NCBI GenBank assembly: GCA_039809265.1
Contig: JBDHUR010000005.1
Coordinates: 1 to 41,977 of the forward strand
Direction: 5' to 3'
From: Minisyncoccia bacterium
Lineage (GTDB): Bacteria; Patescibacteriota; Minisyncoccia; Phycocordibacterales; UBA9973
DNA: 41,977 bases
In this document: positions 3,216 to 41,977 of the stretch, one piece after another
Layout of the letters: each line of letters starts with the position of its first letter
Numbering within the stretch: position 1 is the stretch's first letter
Position numbers and translations under genes: made by a program
Notes under the pieces: generated by a model
The model's input: the letters and a program-made list of their open reading frames with translations, nothing else
Database searches by the model: none
Told to the model about the DNA's origin: nothing

Positions 3216-6200
3216 ATGAAACATATCTGGAACAAAACTATAGCGATAGTGGCGGTTGTTGCTGGTATAGTGATTTTAGTTTTTAATGCAATATCTCCTG
3301 CTTGGGCGAGTTTTGCAGCAACAGATATTTTAGGACAGCTCAATGGAGTAGGTAACCCAAATTTTAATCAGTTTTCTATTAATTCTGGTCAAGCAGGAAC
3401 TGTTGATTATGGGCTCAATTCACCATCTGCGATTGTTTTAGACAAAGACAATCATAGGCTTTTTGTTGCAGATCGTAATAATAACAGAGTTTTAGTTTTT
3501 TTGTTAAATACCGATAATGATATTGTTAGTCATCATGCTGATTATGTTATCGGCCAGCCAGATTTTGTTTCAAGCGATGAAAATCAAGGTGGACTACCTG
3601 CTGCAAATACATTAAAAAATCCATCAGGTCTTTCTTATACTAATGGTGGGCAAAAACTTTTTGTTTCCGATACAGGAAATAATCGCGTTCTTATTTTTAA
3701 TGTTACCACCATAACAAACAATATGTCAGCATATGAAGTTATTGGTCAACCAGATTTTATTTCCAATACAGCGAACCAAGGTGTTAGCCAAAATGCTCAA
3801 ACTTTATATACTCCAGTAGGAATAGATTATGATGAGATTAAAAATTATTTATATGTTGCAGACTTTAATAATGACAGGGTCTTGGTGTTTGATCTTTCTG
3901 TGCCTGGAAATAATAGATCTGCTATTTATGTACTTGGCAAACCGACAATGACAACAGTTCAGCCTGGTTTTGCTTCCCAAACAAGGTTTAATAAACCTCG
4001 CGATGTTAGTTTTGATCCATTAAACGAGAGACTTTTTGTTGCAGATTATCAAAATAGAAGAGTTGTGGTGTTTGATGTTCGTGCAGCAGGATCTACTTCA
4101 AATGTACTGTGTCCGCTTATTCCACCAGCTCAGGCTACTACTGGTCTTGCAGATGGTATGCCTGGTTCTTGTCGTATCGGTCAGCCAAACTGGACTACAA
4201 ATATTGGCGGAAACACAGCCTACAATTTTCAGCATATTTTTGGGGTTGAATATGATGATAATAAACAGTTGCTATACACAGTGGACCAAACTAGCCGCCT
4301 GCTTGTGTTTGATGTTTCTACTATAGAAGATTATCCAAAGAATGCTGTTTCAGTTTTTGGTCAGCCAAACTTTACTAGTGCCGGTAATGTAGATCATTCC
4401 GCAACTGGTTTATATAACCCTTTAGGGGCTGTTCTGAATCCAGTAGATGGATCATTCTATATAGCTGATACCAGTAATCATCGTGTTCTAAAGTATGAAT
4501 TCGTATCTATTACAACAAACTCTATGCCAAATGGAACTGTCGGTTTTTATTACAGTGAACCCATAAGTTATATTGACTCCCAAGGAATTGTTTCTATGGA
4601 GATAGTTTCAGGGTCTTTACCTCCTGGACTAACACTTTCCGGTACATCTATAACAGGTACGCCTACTGTGCCGGGGGTGTATGATTTTTTTGTACGGGCG
4701 GTAGATGATTCTGGTGGCTCGGGTACTTTTTATTCACAAACAATAAAGTTTACAATAACCGTTGATTTACTGCCGGCAGGTGTAACTGTGGGTGCTGTAT
4801 CTGGAGATACGACAGAAGGGGGGAGTACTTCAACCTTCTCTTTAGTTTTAAATTCTCCAACATTAGCTGGACAAGATGTAACAATAAACCTTTCCTCAGG
4901 AGATCCAACGGAAGGCACCATTTCTCCTTCATCCGTCACATTCACTGCCGCAAACTGGGATATTCCACAGACTGTTACAATAACAGGTGTAGATGACTTG
5001 ATAGCTGATGGAAATGTTTACTACTCTATTATTACAGGCAATACTATCAGTACTTATTCTGAATATGATAATTTGGCTGTGCCTGATGTTTTTCTATACA
5101 ACATAGACGATGATATTCCAAATTATTTACCGTCTGCTATTTCAGGGCATACCACAGAAGCTCTAGGCACAGCGACATTTACTTTCAAACTAGCTACTCA
5201 GCCGACAGGAGATGTTGTAATCCCTCTGTCTTCAAGTGACCCAACAGAAGGAACTGTTTCTCCTTCATCTTTAACTTTTACAACTTCTAACTGGAACATA
5301 AACCAAACCGTTACAGTCACTGGTGTTGATGACAATATAGATGATGGAGATGTCCCTTATTCTGTTATCACAGGAACAGCTGTAACCTCAGATAGTGTAT
5401 ATGCAGCTTTAACTACACCTGATATAACAGTAATAAATGACGATGATGATGATACTGTCGGAGTAACGGTTAGTGAGATTTCAAATAACACCTCTGAATC
5501 AGGAGACGCTGCAACATTTTCTGTTGTATTAAATTCAGAACCACTAGATGATGTGACCATAAGTTTAATGTCTAGCGACACTTCTGAGGGAGTAATTTCT
5601 ATTTCTTCTCTAATTTTTACTACAACAAATTGGAATATCCCGCAAGTTGTAACTGTTACAGGTGTAGATGATTCTATATATGATGGAGATGTTTCTTATT
5701 CTATTATTACAGGAGATTCTGTAAGTTTGGACCCCGGCTATAGTGGTATGATTGTAGATGATGTTTTAGCTCTAAACCTAGATAACGATCCTCCGCCACC
5801 ACCAGGAGGAGGTGTGGTGATTATTGAAAATTTTGATTTGCAAGTTATACGCCAAACAACTCCAACAACTGCTGATTTACGATTTATAATTTCTTCGGCT
5901 GGCGGTGGAAGTAATACAACTTGGCTTATGGTTTATTCCACAGATTCAAGTGCTTTAGCGACTATGACAAAAGTGCCTTGGGTTCCGCAAATGTATAACG
6001 TGACAATACCGCGCGGAGCACGGTATGTATATGCACAGTACTTTGATGCAAATGATCCAAATCATAAAAGCCAAGTACTTAGTCGTCCACTACAAACATT
6101 TGAACAAACAAATACAGAGACGCAAAACTTTGATCCTTCTACTTGTACACCGTATATAAACTCATATATGAGTTTGGGTGGGGCAAATAACTCTTTAGAA

Positions 6201-32801: not shown

Positions 32802-32808
32802 ATAAGTG

Positions 32809-32882
32809 TCCACCCTCTTGGATTCGAACCAAGGACCCCAGAGGTATAAGCTCTGTGCTCTAACCAACTGAGCTAAGGGTGG
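32809..32882 (-). tRNA. tRNA-Ile (anticodon UAU)
   Basis: CCACCCT/AGGGTGG acceptor, TAGCTCAGTTGGTTAGAGC D-arm, CAGAG-CTTATAC-CTCTG anticodon arm, GGTTCGAATCC T-arm, discriminator A, no encoded CCA. Confidence 0.93.
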
Positions 32883-37051: not shown

Positions 37052-38248
37052 ATGACAACAACCCTAGAACCACAAGCAAAAAAAATAAAATGCCAATATT
37101 GCGGTGACTCTCCGACAAACCACAAGTTGGAATACATAGGTACAATACTTGCTGTGCATGTAGAGTCTCGCACAGCAAAAATAACAGCTCGTGCGCCCAA
37201 ATTTGTGAAGAACTTAGTGGACAAGTTTCCAAACTTTTTTGTAGCTTGCTTGAAGTTTTTCGGCTTGGCGCATTTTGAAAATTCTATGGATAAGGTTGCA
37301 TCTTTCCGCTCGCGGATAGTTTGGGAAGAGGCAAATAGGAGGGGAATACAGATGCAGCAGGTCGCAGTCTTTGGCAAGCCGCTTGAGTTATATCGAGCAA
37401 AGATTAAAAACAAGTGGTTTTATTTTGAATCGTTGCCGGTGCCGCCAGAGTTTATGGATTCGGAAGTTGTTTGGGACGATAAAAAGATTTTGAAGAATTA
37501 TCTGAAAGATGCAGGAGTGCCTGTGCCAAAGTATGCTACGCTTTCGCAATTCCACCCGAAAAATTTGCAATCTGTGTTTGCAAATTTTTCGGGCCCCGTC
37601 ATTGTAAAGCCGCGCATCGGCTCGCGAGGTAGGCATACTACTACAAATGTGCATTCGTTTGAAGAGGTGGAGAAAGCTGTAAAGCTGGCGCACGCCATAA
37701 CTCCGTACGTCATGATAGAAGAGCATTTGAGCGGAGACATCTGCAGGGCAACACTGGTAAACGGCAAGCTGGCCGGCTTCTATCGAGCTTCTGCGCCAGC
37801 TGTGGTAGGCGATGGGGTACATACGGTACAAGAGCTGATAGAAGAAAATAATCGCACCAAGCCAGAGCGCGTGCAACCCATAGAAATGACACCCGAGCGG
37901 TACGAATACTTGGCGCGTTCTGGTATGACTTTGGAGTCTGTACCCAAAGTTGGCGAGCGAGTACAACTGACACATAGGACAGGCAGACTTTTTGGCGGCA
38001 GAACAAAGGAAATGATAGACGAACTGCATCCTTCGTTTGTGCCATTCTTGGAAAAAGCTGGGAAGACTGTCGCCTTGGCTGTTGCAGGCTTTGATGTGGT
38101 AGTGCCAGACCCGACGGCAGACCAAGCTTCCCAAAAATGGGGGATCATAGAATGCAACACTTTGCCTTTCATAGATTTGCATTACTACGCGCTGGAGGGC
38201 AAGCCGCGCAACATCGCTGGCATGATTTGGGATTTGTGGGAGAAGTAG
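37052..38248 (+). CDS. ATP-grasp ligase, cyanophycin synthetase / GshF C-terminal-like
   Basis: DDK...K..L..AGVPVP, P.IVKP..GSRG, IEE, P.VVGDG.HTV.ELIE..N, GFD, IIECN..P; N-terminal CxxC. Confidence 0.8.
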   Translation: MTTTLEPQAKKIKCQYCGDSPTNHKLEYIGTILAVHVESRTAKITARAPKFVKNLVDKFPNFFVACLKFFGLAHFENSMDKVASFRSRIVWEEANRRGIQMQQVAVFGKPLELYRAKIKNKWFYFESLPVPPEFMDSEVVWDDKKILKNYLKDAGVPVPKYATLSQFHPKNLQSVFANFSGPVIVKPRIGSRGRHTTTNVHSFEEVEKAVKLAHAITPYVMIEEHLSGDICRATLVNGKLAGFYRASAPAVVGDGVHTVQELIEENNRTKPERVQPIEMTPERYEYLARSGMTLESVPKVGERVQLTHRTGRLFGGRTKEMIDELHPSFVPFLEKAGKTVALAVAGFDVVVPDPTADQASQKWGIIECNTLPFIDLHYYALEGKPRNIAGMIWDLWEK

Positions 38249-38289
38249 TATAATCGGCAGATAGCAATTAGTTGTGTAATTAAAATAAT

Positions 38290-38991
38290 ATGAAAAAAAT
38301 AATTTCGATAATCATAGTTTTGGCAATCGTTGCACTCGGCGCATATTTTTATCTTACCCGCCCAGTGGCAGAGCCTACCGAAAACATCCAAGACCAAGTT
38401 ACACCCGTAACTGTAGACGATACAACTTCAGACACAGTCGGCGGTGCTAGTACGGGGGACTGGAAGACATACCGCATAGACTCTGTTTCCAAAGTTTCTT
38501 TTTCCATTAAGGAAGTTTTGCGTGAGAAGCCTTTCACTGCTGTCGGCACGACAAGCCAAGTAGCGGGAGAAATGAAAATAAAAGAAACTGGCGTGGCAAC
38601 AAAGCAATACACTCTTGCTCTCGGAGAAGTGAAAATAGATGCAAGAACATTCAAGACGGATGATGAGAAGCGCGACGGCATGATAGTGCGTGGAATACTT
38701 GTTTCTGAAAAAGCAGGCAATGAGTACATAACATTTACGCCAGCAGACAAAACTGTAACTTTTGAAAACGGCAAAGAGTTTACGCTAAATGGCACGCTTA
38801 AAGTTTCCAGCATTTCAAAGCCTGTGGTTTTGAAAATAACTGCAAATGTAGACGGCTCAAAAATAACAGGTAAAATGAGCGCAACCATAAAGCGTTCTGA
38901 CTACAGTCTCACTATCCCCGACGTGCCATTTGTAGCAAGTGTGGATGATGCATTTGACATTTCCGCAGACATATCAGCTTCTCAAAGATAA
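38290..38991 (+). CDS. YceI-like lipid/polyisoprenoid-binding protein, membrane anchored
   Basis: N-terminal TM; Y.ID..S.V.F, F.TD...RD, G.L.V....KPV, I.RSDY. Confidence 0.8.
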   Translation: MKKIISIIIVLAIVALGAYFYLTRPVAEPTENIQDQVTPVTVDDTTSDTVGGASTGDWKTYRIDSVSKVSFSIKEVLREKPFTAVGTTSQVAGEMKIKETGVATKQYTLALGEVKIDARTFKTDDEKRDGMIVRGILVSEKAGNEYITFTPADKTVTFENGKEFTLNGTLKVSSISKPVVLKITANVDGSKITGKMSATIKRSDYSLTIPDVPFVASVDDAFDISADISASQR

Positions 38992-38994
38992 AAT

Positions 38995-40140
38995 ATGTCC
39001 AATAAAAAAGATATTTCAAAAGAAGCTTTAGCGCTTCATAAAAAGCTTGGCGGTAAAATATCTGTCGTACCGGCAAAAGCTGTAAAAAACAGGGATGACC
39101 TTTCTCTTATATACACTCCTGGAGTAGGCGCAGTTTCTTCCTTTCTTGCAAAAAACAAAAAAGAGGCAGGCAAATATACAATGAAAGGCAAAACTGTGGC
39201 TGTGGTTTCGGATGGTTCTGCTGTTTTGGGGCTTGGGAATATTGGCCCCGAAGGTGCCTTGCCCGTCATGGAAGGCAAGGCAGTGCTTTTCAAGTCTCTG
39301 GCTGGAGTTGATGCTTTTCCCATAGTGCTGGATACTCAGGATGCAAAAGAGATAGTGAACACAGTGCTTCGCATCGCGCCAAACTTTGGCGGGATAAACT
39401 TGGAAGATATTGCTGCACCCAAGTGCTTTGATGTGGAGAGGGAGCTAAAGCAAAAGCTTGATATACCCGTGATACACGACGATCAGCACGGCACAGCCAT
39501 AGTTGTCCTTGCGGGACTGATAAATGCTTGCAAGGTGGCAGGTAAGAGTTTGAAGAAAATTTCTGTGGTTGTAAGCGGTGCCGGCGCAGCCGGCACCGCC
39601 ATCTCCAACCTACTTCTCTTGTATAGAGTAAAAGATGTGCGTGTACTGGACAGTGTAGGGCTGCTTTCTGCTTCCCGTAAAGACCTTTCTGCTTACAAGC
39701 TAGATTTGGCAAGGCGTACCAACCCCAAGAATATTTCCGGCGGTATGGATGAAGCTATGCAAAATGCAGATGTATTTGTGGGTGTATCCAAACCTGGAGT
39801 ACTTTTGCCAAAGTACATAAAGCTGATGAATGAAAAGCCGATAATTTTCGCCTTGGCAAACCCTGTACCAGAGATAATGCCAGATGCAGCGCTTGCTGCC
39901 GGAGCTTTTGTAGTAGCGACAGGTAGATCCGACTTTCCGAACCAAATCAACAACGCTTTAGTTTTCCCAGGACTTTTCAAGGGTGCATTGAAAAATAAAG
40001 TACAAAGTATTTCAGATAAAATGAAAATAAAAGCTGCGCAAAACTTGGCAAAAATGGTAAAGAATCCAAAAAAGAACAAAATAATCTCTGGAGTATTTGA
40101 AGCTGGTGTGGCTGATGCTGTTGCAAAAGCAATAAAGTAG
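38995..40140 (+). CDS. NAD(P)-dependent malic enzyme
   Basis: YTPGV, SDGSAVLGLGNIG, PVMEGKA.LFK, NLEDI, HDDQHGTA, GAGAAG, TGRSDFPNQINN. Confidence 0.96.
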   Translation: MSNKKDISKEALALHKKLGGKISVVPAKAVKNRDDLSLIYTPGVGAVSSFLAKNKKEAGKYTMKGKTVAVVSDGSAVLGLGNIGPEGALPVMEGKAVLFKSLAGVDAFPIVLDTQDAKEIVNTVLRIAPNFGGINLEDIAAPKCFDVERELKQKLDIPVIHDDQHGTAIVVLAGLINACKVAGKSLKKISVVVSGAGAAGTAISNLLLLYRVKDVRVLDSVGLLSASRKDLSAYKLDLARRTNPKNISGGMDEAMQNADVFVGVSKPGVLLPKYIKLMNEKPIIFALANPVPEIMPDAALAAGAFVVATGRSDFPNQINNALVFPGLFKGALKNKVQSISDKMKIKAAQNLAKMVKNPKKNKIISGVFEAGVADAVAKAIK

Positions 40141-40184
40141 TTGGATTAGAAAAAAACTTTTAAATATGGTAGTCTAAGAACAAT

Positions 40185-40274
40185 GGAGACGTGGCTGAGT
40201 GGTCGAAAGCACCTCACTGCTAACGAGGCAGGGCGTAAAAACCCTCGACGGTTCGAATCCGTCCGTCTCCGCCA
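40185..40274 (+). tRNA. tRNA-Ser (anticodon GCU)
   Basis: GGAGACG/CGTCTCC acceptor, G discriminator + CCA, CT-GCT-AA loop, long variable arm, GGTTCGAATCC. Confidence 0.96.
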
Positions 40275-41767
40275 AAATTGGAAATCGGAATCAGAGCCCG
40301 AAATGGGGTCGGCGCGAAGCGCCGACACTCCTCTCTTCCCCCCAAAAATTCTGAATCTGAAAGGATTTTCCACGCTCCGCGTGGCTCAAAAAGTACGGTT
40401 CGATCCTTAATTTGAAAGTTCGAACCGACTTTTTTGAACAAATGAAGTTTTTCTTCATTTGTTTCCTCGTTTGCCAATTCCATATTGTATTTCAAAAACT
40501 TTTCCGTAAGTTCGAACCGATTATTCGCTTTTTGCTCAAAAGCCGATAATTTCTCTTTGAGAAGCTGTTTTGAGGCAACGAGTGTACCCTTGGCATCACG
40601 ATATTCTTCAAGTGATAATGCGCTCTCTAGGTATGCTGTCATCAGCTTCTCAATTTTGGTATCAAGAAGAGAAATTTCGGCTTTCAAACCATCAGAAAAA
40701 AGCGTACTCGATTGGATTTCGGATGATTGGTCTTTTTGGTTCTCCTCAATCATCCAAGAAAGCCAATCGAGTGGCAAAGAAACTTTTTTGATTTCCTCCT
40801 GTATTTGAGAAGTGATGAGCTCCTCGCGGACATATTTCTGCTCACAAGGATTTTTCCGTTTTGTACAACGCAGATAGTTATGACCTTTTTGCGTTTCGGT
40901 GGTAACAAAGCACCCACATTCTCCGCAACGGAAAAATCCTCGGTAAAGATACGACTTTAACCCGCGAGACTTCGGTTTCGACTTTCGGCTCATCACTCCC
41001 TGAACAGAATCAAAAAGTTTCTTTGAGATAATCGGTTCGTGCTTGCCCTCAAAAATCTCTCCGTTGTATAACATCAAACCCGTGTAGATAGGATTTTTGA
41101 GAAGTTTTTGATAATTCGACACCGCAAGTTCCTTTCCGCTTTTTCGCTTCAATCCAAGTCCATTAAACTTGTAGCGAAGTTCGCGCAAAGTGAAGTTGCC
41201 TGTGGCGTATGCCTCAAATGTCTTTTTGATAAGCGGAGCAATCTCGCTATCAAGCACAATCTTGCCATTTTCATTGATGTATCCCAACGGAGACATTTGA
41301 GGCCATATACCTTCCTTCACTTTGTTGCGCTTCCCACGCTTGATATTCTCACTCAAGTTATCAACGTAGTACTTGGATTGCGAAAAAGCGATTGAGAGCA
41401 TGAATTTTCCTTGCGGTGTCGGATCAAACCAAAAAGTTGGAAATTTCATCTCACTAATTACGCCTGTATCAACGAGATAAATTATCTTTCCACCATCAAC
41501 GCTATTTCTCGCGAGTCTATCGGGATGCCACGCCAAAATACCAGTGGCTTCGCCTTTCTCCATTCGCTCTAACATTTCACCAAATACAGGGCGACCTGGT
41601 ATTTTGGCGGTCTGCTTCTCGACAAAGACATCTACCACTTCCAGCTGCTCTTTCAACGCCAAGTCCTTTAACTCCGAAAGTTGGTCAGCAATACTGCGGA
41701 CTTGTCTGTCTTTGTCGTCCGTAGACTTGCGAGTGTAGATGAAAAACTTATTGGTTTGATTATTCAT
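40220..41767 (-). CDS. Large serine recombinase (resolvase + recombinase + zinc-ribbon + coiled coil); 3' end runs into the antisense of tRNA-Ser
   Basis: YTRKST catalytic Ser, GRP.F..M, DRLARN, P.GY, L.NP.Y.G, HEPIIS..LF..VQ, CGECG...Y.RC...C. Confidence 0.95.
   Translation of the reverse strand: MNNQTNKFFIYTRKSTDDKDRQVRSIADQLSELKDLALKEQLEVVDVFVEKQTAKIPGRPVFGEMLERMEKGEATGILAWHPDRLARNSVDGGKIIYLVDTGVISEMKFPTFWFDPTPQGKFMLSIAFSQSKYYVDNLSENIKRGKRNKVKEGIWPQMSPLGYINENGKIVLDSEIAPLIKKTFEAYATGNFTLRELRYKFNGLGLKRKSGKELAVSNYQKLLKNPIYTGLMLYNGEIFEGKHEPIISKKLFDSVQGVMSRKSKPKSRGLKSYLYRGFFRCGECGCFVTTETQKGHNYLRCTKRKNPCEQKYVREELITSQIQEEIKKVSLPLDWLSWMIEENQKDQSSEIQSSTLFSDGLKAEISLLDTKIEKLMTAYLESALSLEEYRDAKGTLVASKQLLKEKLSAFEQKANNRFELTEKFLKYNMELANEETNEEKLHLFKKVGSNFQIKDRTVLFEPRGAWKILSDSEFLGGREECRRFAPTPFRALIPISNFGGDGRIRTVEGFYALPR
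40269..40387 (+). repeat. Left copy of 119-bp perfect inverted repeat (includes tRNA 3' CCGCCA; lies inside the recombinase 3' end)
   Basis: Base-by-base reverse complement of 41786-41904. Confidence 0.97.
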
Positions 41768-41785
41768 ATAGCATTGGCAAACGAC

Positions 41786-41904
41786 GAGCCACGCGGAGCG
41801 TGGAAAATCCTTTCAGATTCAGAATTTTTGGGGGGAAGAGAGGAGTGTCGGCGCTTCGCGCCGACCCCATTTCGGGCTCTGATTCCGATTTCCAATTTTG
41901 GCGG
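41786..41904 (-). repeat. Right copy of 119-bp perfect inverted repeat, 18 bp upstream of the recombinase start codon
   Basis: Base-by-base reverse complement of 40269-40387. Confidence 0.97.
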
Positions 41905-41977
41905 TGTTTGTTGGACAAAGTTCGAATGTATTTTGAGCAGAACCCTAACGAAGAATGAAATGCGCCTCGGACACGCT

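Follow-up and report, generated by a model that had tools for sequence, protein, structure and literature searches.

A large serine recombinase gene between perfect inverted repeats at a tRNA-Ser gene of Patescibacteria: a small integrative element with a predicted attachment site inside its own recombinase gene

We analysed a 41,977-nt stretch of DNA (hereafter the window), which is the entire contig C5 (JBDHUR010000005.1) of the genome of a Minisyncoccia bacterium (G000; 17 contigs, 573,652 bp, estimated completeness 96.7%). At its right-hand end, a gene for a large serine recombinase (LSR) lies between two perfect inverted repeats (IRs) beside a tRNA-Ser gene. The features of this region are listed below, where attP and attB denote the attachment sites of element and host, attL and attR the two junctions between them, and U a block that is conserved next to the repeat in related loci.

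40185-40274, plus strand: tRNA-Ser(gct) gene (ARAGORN; Rfam tRNA, 56.9 bits), whose 3' end (T-loop TTCGAA ... CCGCC) is read as the attB-type left half of attL
40269-40273, mirrored at 41900-41904, no strand: crossover core CCGC(C), common to all three junction types
40269-40387, no strand: left arm R of the 119-nt IR (100%), read as the element-side half of attL, starting in the last 6 nt of tRNA-Ser
40308-40326, mirrored at 41847-41865, no strand: GC hairpin in the arm with an 8-bp stem and a GAA loop, conserved with covariation
40344-40348, mirrored at 41825-41829, no strand: A-run that is one base short in pairwise alignments to the arms of L095, L172 and L009
40220-41767, minus strand: LSR open reading frame (ORF) as assembled, 515 amino acids (ORF list, Pfam), with a unique body at 40388-41767
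41786-41904, no strand: right arm R', taken as the R portion of an attP-like site that is intact and inverted, located 18 nt before the start codon (ATG) of the recombinase, as in relatives
41905-41977, no strand: first 73 nt of block U, which the contig end interrupts, read as an attP-type half-site in which TTCGAA and the core are 16 nt apart

A repeat search returned the two arms with 100% complementarity over 119 nt and a spacing of 1398 nt, and the runner-up IR in 38000-41977 was 27 nt long at 85%. The recombinase ORF is the only long ORF between the arms, and its 3' end passes through the left arm, whose minus strand encodes residues ~461-500 (tblastn), before ending in the antisense tRNA. 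These results bear out the layout that the original prediction, made from the letters alone, had described, namely an exact repeat enclosing only the recombinase gene, a left copy that begins within tRNA-Ser (as placed by ARAGORN) and encodes part of the C-terminus, and a right copy just upstream of the ATG of a gene running antisense to the tRNA. The prediction had further stated that after a flip the ORF would continue beyond 41904, and the as-called frame is open to the contig end (ORF 41681..41977, 3' open).

The recombinase carries the Pfam domains Resolvase (PF00239, residues 9-154, E = 4.2e-19), Recombinase (PF07508, 177-261) and Zn_ribbon_recom (PF13408, 274-326). Its N-terminal serine motif, IYTRKS, has the Y-x-R-x-S pattern, R13, K14 and S15 being invariant in 21 aligned sequences, and among solved structures SPbeta SprA/YokA and the A118 integrase are closest to it. 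By its domains and the logic of its att sites, the enzyme is an LSR, with predicted attP x attB activity. A model of a naturally full-length relative (the L101 protein, 21-row alignment) was of low overall confidence, with a mean predicted local distance difference test (pLDDT) of 58.4 and all of residues 427-518 below 50. It contained helices at 333-380 and 386-432, together a long helical hairpin (333-432; block pLDDT 67-86 over 350-410), and a helix at 494-512 in the tail that was predicted without confidence.

To place the window among its relatives, we scanned species-representative genomes with the protein as seed, which gave 200 relatives, of which 80 (74-92% amino-acid identity) were kept; metagenome contigs gave at least 468 further relatives, of which another 80 were kept, for a total of 160 loci. 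According to their record titles, the species-representative relatives come nearly all from lineages of Patescibacteria, or the candidate phyla radiation (CPR). Arms were detected in 123 of the 160 loci, and the other 37 were mostly cut by contig ends. Read in the orientation of the recombinase, the loci fell into the following classes of upstream and downstream flank.

U upstream, tRNA-Ser downstream: 90 of 160 loci, in the same orientation as the window
U upstream, degenerate or other sequence downstream: 12 of 160 loci
tRNA on both sides: 3 of 160 loci (L007, L039, L081)
tRNA upstream, U downstream: 1 of 160 loci (L159)
one side cut by a contig end: 16 of 160 loci, in five classes, the two largest with 6 loci each
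both sides cut by a contig end: 1 of 160 loci

The downstream arm adjoined the 3' end of tRNA-Ser genes with any anticodon (gct, gga, tga, cga and act), and the upstream arm was preceded by block U in 108 of the 123 arm-bearing loci. Flanks on the tRNA side were unrelated among loci, and those on the U side were conserved over 200-600 nt. The family thus shows site specificity for tRNA 3' ends and a strong orientation bias; one of the checks proposed with the original prediction, a search for homologs at tRNA 3' ends in CPR genomes, is answered by the 90 loci that adjoin tRNA-Ser in the orientation of the window.

In 36 of the 69 loci with at least 700 nt of upstream sequence, a second, inverted copy of U reaching the CCGC core was found 1.35-6.0 kb further out. 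This copy had a median length of 204 nt, with 15 of the 36 at 100% identity and 13 at ≥99%. The cargo between the two U copies (1.35-6.0 kb) differed in nearly every locus, and a small XRE-type helix-turn-helix (HTH) gene, divergent from the LSR gene, was present between them in 46 of the 74 loci with enough flank. By ORF reading rather than family search, the cargo candidates comprise methyltransferase/restriction-like genes, a Fic-motif protein, a Ddl-like ligase and a nitroreductase-like gene with an ArsR-like regulator. The cargo genes lie almost always on the strand opposite to the recombinase, the first of them starting ~300 nt past the inner U copy, and in one locus (L040, region 4245-5586) a Fic-motif protein (HPYSDGNGRTGR) is encoded beside the HTH gene. 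With a conserved platform and a variable payload, this arrangement may be likened to that of integrons.

The tRNA-R, inverted U-R and U-host junctions had in common only CCGC plus 0-6 nt (36 loci, and also G000), with host sides that were unrelated between loci. Because they share no more than this, the junctions are read as attL, an intact inverted attP and attR, respectively. The attL and attR sites lie in direct orientation with a shared core, and the tRNA 3' end is restored; both ends were seen in the 36 loci, and in G000 attR is on contig C7. Together, these results show that the window ends within a small integrative element, found in Patescibacteria/CPR genomes and here inserted at the tRNA-Ser 3' end, in the order tRNA-Ser..CCGCC/R, LSR gene (antisense), R'/GGCGG-U', small HTH gene and variable cargo, U-CCGC/host. 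The 119-bp IR consists of the R half of attL (tRNA-R) and the R half of the intact inverted attP (U-R), and a second IR of ~200 bp, formed by U, brackets the cargo and ends at attR. The original prediction had offered, as one of two readings, a minimal mobile element holding one tRNA junction and one intact attP-like site in inverted orientation. The junction and the site stand, but the element is not minimal, as it extends through U, the HTH gene and the cargo to attR.

We next consider where the recombinase gene ends. For each locus, the upstream arm and U were reverse-complemented and attached in silico to the gene body, reproducing the sequence that would lie downstream in a circle or after a flip. 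This join gave a uniform ORF with a conserved tail in 78 of the 86 loci that could be tested, or in 83 when the 5 with a variant motif are counted. The joined (virtual) ORFs are mostly 516-520 amino acids long and end in ...FWR-C(V/L)L(D/N)(K/E)VR(M/T/N)YF(E/G)(Q/L)NP..., followed by a stop; the as-assembled ORFs, which end in antisense tRNA, have 38 distinct lengths from 51 to 578 amino acids. The entropy at codon positions 1/2/3 of the tail was 0.47/0.38/0.73, as expected for coding sequence, and the tail is therefore read as coding. Moreover, uninterrupted full-length ORFs of 516-518 amino acids occur naturally where U lies downstream (L101, L155 and L159). These comparisons show that the predicted native ORF (516-520 amino acids) crosses the core and stops in U, which would place attP within the 3' end of the recombinase gene. 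Since the native ORF spans the core into U, integration displaces its last ~18 codons with antisense tRNA. The swap of the C-terminus put forward in the original prediction thus holds as coding potential at the level of the family (78 of 86 loci, or 83 with the variant) and fails in the window itself, where the tail is out of frame.

In the window, the plus strand of 41905-41958 encodes the conserved C-terminal tail of the family (...CLLDKVRMYFEQNPNEE, then a stop) in the frame of ORF 41800..41958. Compared with the nearest family arms of 120 nt, one A has been lost in both 119-nt arms, and the recombinase ORF departs from the family frame past ...SEFLGG. A flip in this genome would therefore not yield the protein of the family. 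Possibly the window copy is in decay; alternatively, the C-terminal ~40 residues might not be needed.

Every contig join in G000 is an exact 77-nt overlap, as in the path rc(C1), rc(C17), rc(C14), C5 (rc, reverse complement), indicating an assembler k of 77, which is below the arm size of 119 nt. The last 77 nt of the window (41901-41977) are the reverse complement of C7:1-77, so that the feature lies at an assembly break. When all contig ends of the genome were compared, the end of C5 and the start of C7 were the sole converging pair, without head-to-tail succession; beyond the shared ...CCGC, C7 continues into a T-run and unrelated sequence, and the reverse of C5 into the arm. C7 starts with the last 73 nt of U plus CCGC and then host-side sequence, resembling attR, and C5 holds attL, the recombinase gene and the part of the inverted attP that reaches 73 nt into U. 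The remaining U and the cargo are missing from the G000 bin. On C7 (78-125, L004), ~30 nt directly after the CCGC core resemble the outer module of the R arms of other genomes, and the same R-like 30-mer occurs as an inverted pair 1.6 kb apart in the relative G008 (C42:24-53 and 1638-1667). This resemblance suggests that the G000 element may have landed in a tRNA-Ser site that still held the remnant of an older element.

The att sites of the family were compared by the distance between CCGC and a TTCGAA-like motif, which is 16 nt in U (75 loci) and 11 nt in the tRNA (74 loci), where the motif belongs to the T-loop. For A118-type serine integrases, the motif of the zinc-ribbon domain is given as 5 bp nearer the centre in attB than in attP (excerpt of PMC3783163). 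The 11 versus 16 nt match this 5-bp shift, giving the left halves the appearance of a genuine attB/attP pair; the spacing test covered the left half-sites only.

Among the 110 loci with arms of at least 110 nt, the two arms were 100% identical in 64 and ≥99% identical in 15 more, and 46 of the 110 pairs differed. Identity between loci had a median of 77% (5th-95th percentile, 68-95%), showing that the two arms of a locus evolve in concert. The simplest cause is gene conversion or homologous recombination between the arms, and such crossovers would invert the segment. A site-specific crossover is not the cause, because a crossover at the core cannot homogenise the flanks.

The arm hairpin had compensatory changes at 3 stem pairs (33 cells) in 27 aligned arms, and none of 500 shuffles reached its covariation score. 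These changes alter the encoded peptide (ALRAD vs SRLRRD), and selection at the hairpin is accordingly best described, from the covariation, as acting on the nucleic acid. The loop is usually closed as C-GAA-G within GCGAAGC (alignment A1, columns 42-60), which we take to be an unusually stable DNA mini-hairpin motif, and this hints at a role in single-stranded or cruciform DNA. An Rfam search of the sequence returned only the tRNA above threshold and no family matching the arms, and a scan for consensus promoters and terminators found nothing in the arms beyond shuffle expectation. A single-strand hairpin attP, as in CTX phage and integron attC, was considered and rejected, since it would leave hairpin-capped chromosome ends and no such junctions were seen.

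Several loci contain more than one element or an incomplete one. Tandem arrays of two elements at one tRNA-Ser were found at L118/L119 and also at L021 and L122, and the distal recombinase in them is full length because its downstream neighbour is the U of the next element. The tails of L118 and L122 resemble the U-side tails of other clades (cf. L202/L204 and L193/L194) and are thus hybrid C-termini. Loci that have U on both sides resemble tandem arrays, and no circular contig was identified. The L118/L119 arrays and the R-like fragment on C7 show that occupied tRNA-R sites still serve as targets, so that inversion between tRNA-R and U-R may be catalysed by the LSR. In L007, L039 and L081, a bare cassette without U lies between two convergent tRNA-Ser genes of different anticodons. 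This fits what would be expected if the internal attP had recombined with a second tRNA-Ser, inverting the chromosome segment between them.

The 90 loci oriented as the window face a single alternative isomer, L159, in the order tRNA-Ser, arm, full-length gene, arm, U, followed by sequence like the cargo-distal end and not by the HTH gene. With arms only 79% alike, L159 is better read as a probable integration through the other attP copy than as a recent flip. The presence of both orientations that marks an invertible switch was not found across the 123 arm-bearing loci. Nor does the family have the short IRs and small serine/tyrosine invertase of an inverton, its arms being ~120 bp and its enzyme an LSR of ~518 amino acids. 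In four of four public sequencing runs, the cassette and the 73 nt of U were covered by many short contigs and the adjacent host gene barely (which is not evidence of its absence); like the varying cargo, the tandem arrays and the loci between two tRNA genes, this coverage speaks for a mobile element. These contigs were mostly shorter than the arm, so that flank and gene could not be linked across 119 bp, and a search of sequencing runs found none with half or more of the words. The ON/OFF self-inversion that the original prediction had favoured is thus not shown: there were 0 simple flips, 90 of the 160 loci share one orientation and L159 is better explained otherwise.

The IR layout was also found at other recombinase genes. 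A paralog in G000 (C3, 193..1794, within the locus C3:116-1806; 39% identical; L005/L175) has an IR of 89 nt (116-204/1606-1694, 95.5%) and itself runs into tRNA-Glu(ctc). With this paralog as query, 69 of 151 genomes of the class had matches at E ≤1e-30, up to 7 in a single genome. In the 30 paralog loci that were fetched (40-69% identical), a flanking IR of 41-158 nt was present in 29, and a convergent tRNA gene stood at the downstream arm in 24 (Glu, Leu, Lys, Ser, Pro, Gln, Val, Ala, Arg or Tyr) and upstream instead in 1. Where long enough, the upstream flanks often encode a similar short tail, ...(I/L)L..(A/V)RT(H/F/Y)F..., followed by a stop. From these loci, the IR layout is therefore a property of a CPR LSR superfamily and not of this locus alone. 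The other LSR paralogs of G000 lie mostly at contig ends; they include a C-terminal fragment adjoining tRNA-Leu(taa) (C6:44-734), a copy 34-36% identical and 1.6 kb from tRNA-Ser(tga) (C10:9139-11888) and a 79-residue fragment at a contig start (C4:2-238).

From this architecture, we infer a life cycle that includes an excised circle, a loss of activity on integration and its restoration by inversion, as well as the catalyst of the latter. The circle would carry two inverted attP copies, each ~320 bp (U plus R). Integration through the attP at the 3' end of the gene would swap the last ~18 codons for antisense tRNA, making it a "suicidal" or self-attenuating event, and it is in this form that the element would persist in genomes. 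A spare intact 3' end, together with attP, would be kept in the inverted copy upstream. Recombination across the long arms would then flip the 1.4-kb segment and restore the full-length gene directly downstream of the tRNA, thereby permitting excision. The flip might be made by host homologous recombination, which would also account for the identity of the arms, or by the LSR acting on tRNA-R and U-R.

Taken as a whole, the reading of an integrative element with attP in its gene and a spare end beside it is probably correct, and several points weigh against it. The conserved tail overlaps a presumed DNA-binding motif (TTCGAA in the V-R codons), so that part of its conservation may be at the level of DNA, and the window's own tail at 41905-41958 is out of frame with the gene body, that is, its copy is frameshifted. 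C5 and C7 are presumed to be neighbours on the strength of their converging 77-mers and the layout seen in the family, with the middle of the element absent. Short-read graph collapse, given a k of 77 and an arm of 119 nt, may have inflated the identity of the arms; counter to this, 46 of the 110 pairs differ and L040, a record titled chromosome, has arms at 100%. No body-only flip occurred among the 123 loci with detected arms, and this genome yielded neither a circular junction nor an empty attB or a flipped molecule. To our knowledge, attL x attP recombination is not a reaction of canonical LSRs, and no recombination directionality factor (RDF) candidate was identified beyond the small HTH gene. 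The relatives were too diverged for the search for an empty site or synteny, in which DNA of the C7 flank matched short R-like fragments and one 450-nt stretch. The malic-enzyme gene was present in 2 of 5 relative genomes, and the contig from the same genus stops at a tRNA-Ser(act) in another orientation. A DUF488-like gene of C7 (a label from ORF reading, not searched) was matched in 0 of the 5.

Other explanations of the locus were weighed against this element. That the repeat is an assembly fold-back or chimera near a contig end, which the original prediction had named as its refutation, would be suspected from a feature ≤192 nt from the contig end and from an arm longer than the assembler k, so that the graph alone cannot orient the segment. 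The outer junctions differ, however, one being tRNA and the other U, and both inner junctions exist. Furthermore, the same layout recurs in 123 of the 160 loci (110 with arms of ≥110 nt), in independent assemblies that many studies produced with many assemblers; the loci include some well inside contigs of 420-990 kb and two in records titled chromosomes (L023 and L040). Because the same IR is found across independent assemblies, it is not an artefact, and we give this explanation practically no weight. An autonomous transposon resembling an insertion sequence, consisting of arm, gene and arm with 120-bp terminal IRs next to tRNA 3' ends and with U and the cargo as separate entities, would agree with the bare cassettes of L007, L039 and L081. 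These three are explained as well by recombination of the internal attP with a second tRNA-Ser, whereas U stands beside the upstream arm in 108 of the 123 loci, and resolved copies occur only at tRNA 3' ends or beside U. Such a transposon would also be expected to leave a direct target duplication, instead of which the flanks are inverted (CCGCC ... GGCGG) and part of the IR, and the native ORF requires U to terminate, making this origin very improbable.

In a self-catalysed switch, the LSR would recombine tRNA-R with U-R and act as its own ON/OFF regulator, changing its orientation, promoter context and C-terminus at each flip. Such a switch could operate within the element described above, since it concerns only who flips the segment and how often. 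The two sites have identical right halves, and their left halves have the attB/attP spacing (11 vs 16 nt), a pairing that is permitted to LSRs according to the part of PMC3783163 consulted. Occupied tRNA-R sites do serve as targets, to judge from the L118/L119 arrays, the R-like fragment on C7 and the inverted pair in G008. A full-length enzyme that turned itself into the truncated form by flipping would also be expected to leave a strong bias to one orientation, and the ratio seen is 90 to 1. Nevertheless, no body-only flipped isomer was found in the 123 arm-bearing loci, and perfect identity over 120 bp and 200 bp would be left unexplained, since a site-specific crossover does not homogenise flanks. 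An LSR site needs only ~50 bp. We therefore regard such a switch as rather unlikely, at odds of about one against three in plain terms of belief, although ahead of a purely regulatory role. In the latter, the inverted attP copy would be kept as an operator duplicate for autorepression of the LSR, or as a promoter or complementary sequence, through which transcripts coming from the tRNA side would be antisense to the gene or the 5' leader of the mRNA would pair with its 3' end. The copy does sit in a region of ~400 nt between the divergent LSR and HTH genes (HTH in 46 of 74 loci), and the covarying hairpin of the arm is under selection at the nucleic-acid level. The arms have no promoter-like site in the consensus scan and no Rfam match, though, and neither 100% identity over 120 and 200 bp nor a U-side tail that is in frame and closed by a stop is required for regulation; we consider this role improbable.

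A broader and more tentative proposal, doubtful as it stands though somewhat better placed than the self-catalysed switch, is that the CPR serine-integrase superfamily, with at least 10 tRNA types, runs a built-in life-cycle switch free of an RDF by operating inversion. Integration through the in-gene attP would disable the enzyme, and a rare inversion to the upstream spare attP and 3' end would rebuild it behind a strongly transcribed tRNA gene, leading to excision; the rebuilt enzyme could flip itself off again. If true, the exposed internal attP would drive chromosome inversions between tRNA isoacceptor genes and the exchange of defence-cargo cassettes in these minimal genomes.

Elsewhere in the window, ARAGORN placed a tRNA-Ile with anticodon TAT (UAU) at 32808-32882 on the minus strand. 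A UAU-anticodon tRNA-Ile is an uncommon bacterial means of reading AUA.

CPR/Patescibacteria have tiny genomes with few recognised mobile elements. By ORF reading, the present family ferries restriction-modification-like, Fic-motif/HTH and other accessory genes into CPR tRNA loci, and the element would account for the frequent breaks of CPR assemblies at tRNA genes. Its in-gene attP, spare inverted attP, two nested perfect IRs and covarying hairpin within coding sequence lie outside the textbook picture of LSRs. The layout offers a testable route to the control of directionality without a separate factor, and the family constitutes a large natural panel of integrases with defined pairs of attP and tRNA attB.

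In the full-text literature (supplements excluded), we found no published description of an IR-bracketed serine recombinase at tRNA genes in CPR, nor of any LSR that has attL on one side and an inverted attP on the other. Like the serine integrases Bxb1, phiC31, A118/LI and SPbeta SprA, the enzyme combines Resolvase, Recombinase and zinc-ribbon domains with a helical hairpin, and its sites have a short core and the 5-nt motif shift. Unlike in those systems, attP here lies inside the 3' coding end of the enzyme, with a second intact inverted attP just upstream, and perfect IRs of ~120 bp and ~200 bp surround gene and cargo. The targets are the T-loop/CCA ends of tRNA genes, and no directionality factor is known. 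Inverted repeats also occur in the yeast 2-micron plasmid, where FLP acts with 599-bp repeats, and in Hin/Gin-type invertible segments. As there, repeats with recombination sites would split the inferred circle into two parts, one encoding the recombinase; the present element differs in having no replication genes and no demonstrated mixture of isomers, and an LSR in place of FLP or a small invertase with enhancer.

The archaeal "suicidal" tyrosine integrases of SSV type, as summarised in the sections consulted of Badel et al. 2020 (PMC7253208), carry the site within the integrase ORF, and integration at a tRNA disrupts the gene. To the extent described there, the present family resembles them in having attP inside the integrase ORF, in the truncation of the gene by integration (78 of 86 loci, 83 with the variant motif) and in tails of mixed origin (L118, L122). 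It differs from that account in being bacterial (CPR), with serine recombinase domains only and no tyrosine fold found, in displacing only ~18 C-terminal codons and in keeping a spare inverted end beside the gene. For tycheposons, 910 of 937 elements are reported to use tyrosine recombinases (bioRxiv 10.1101/2020.12.28.424599, partial text). As far as that text describes them, they have direct repeats at their ends, no inverted attP and no IR-bracketed integrase. They are nevertheless the closest concept, likewise being small site-specific tRNA elements with variable cargo, including defence-type genes, and with tandem accretion.

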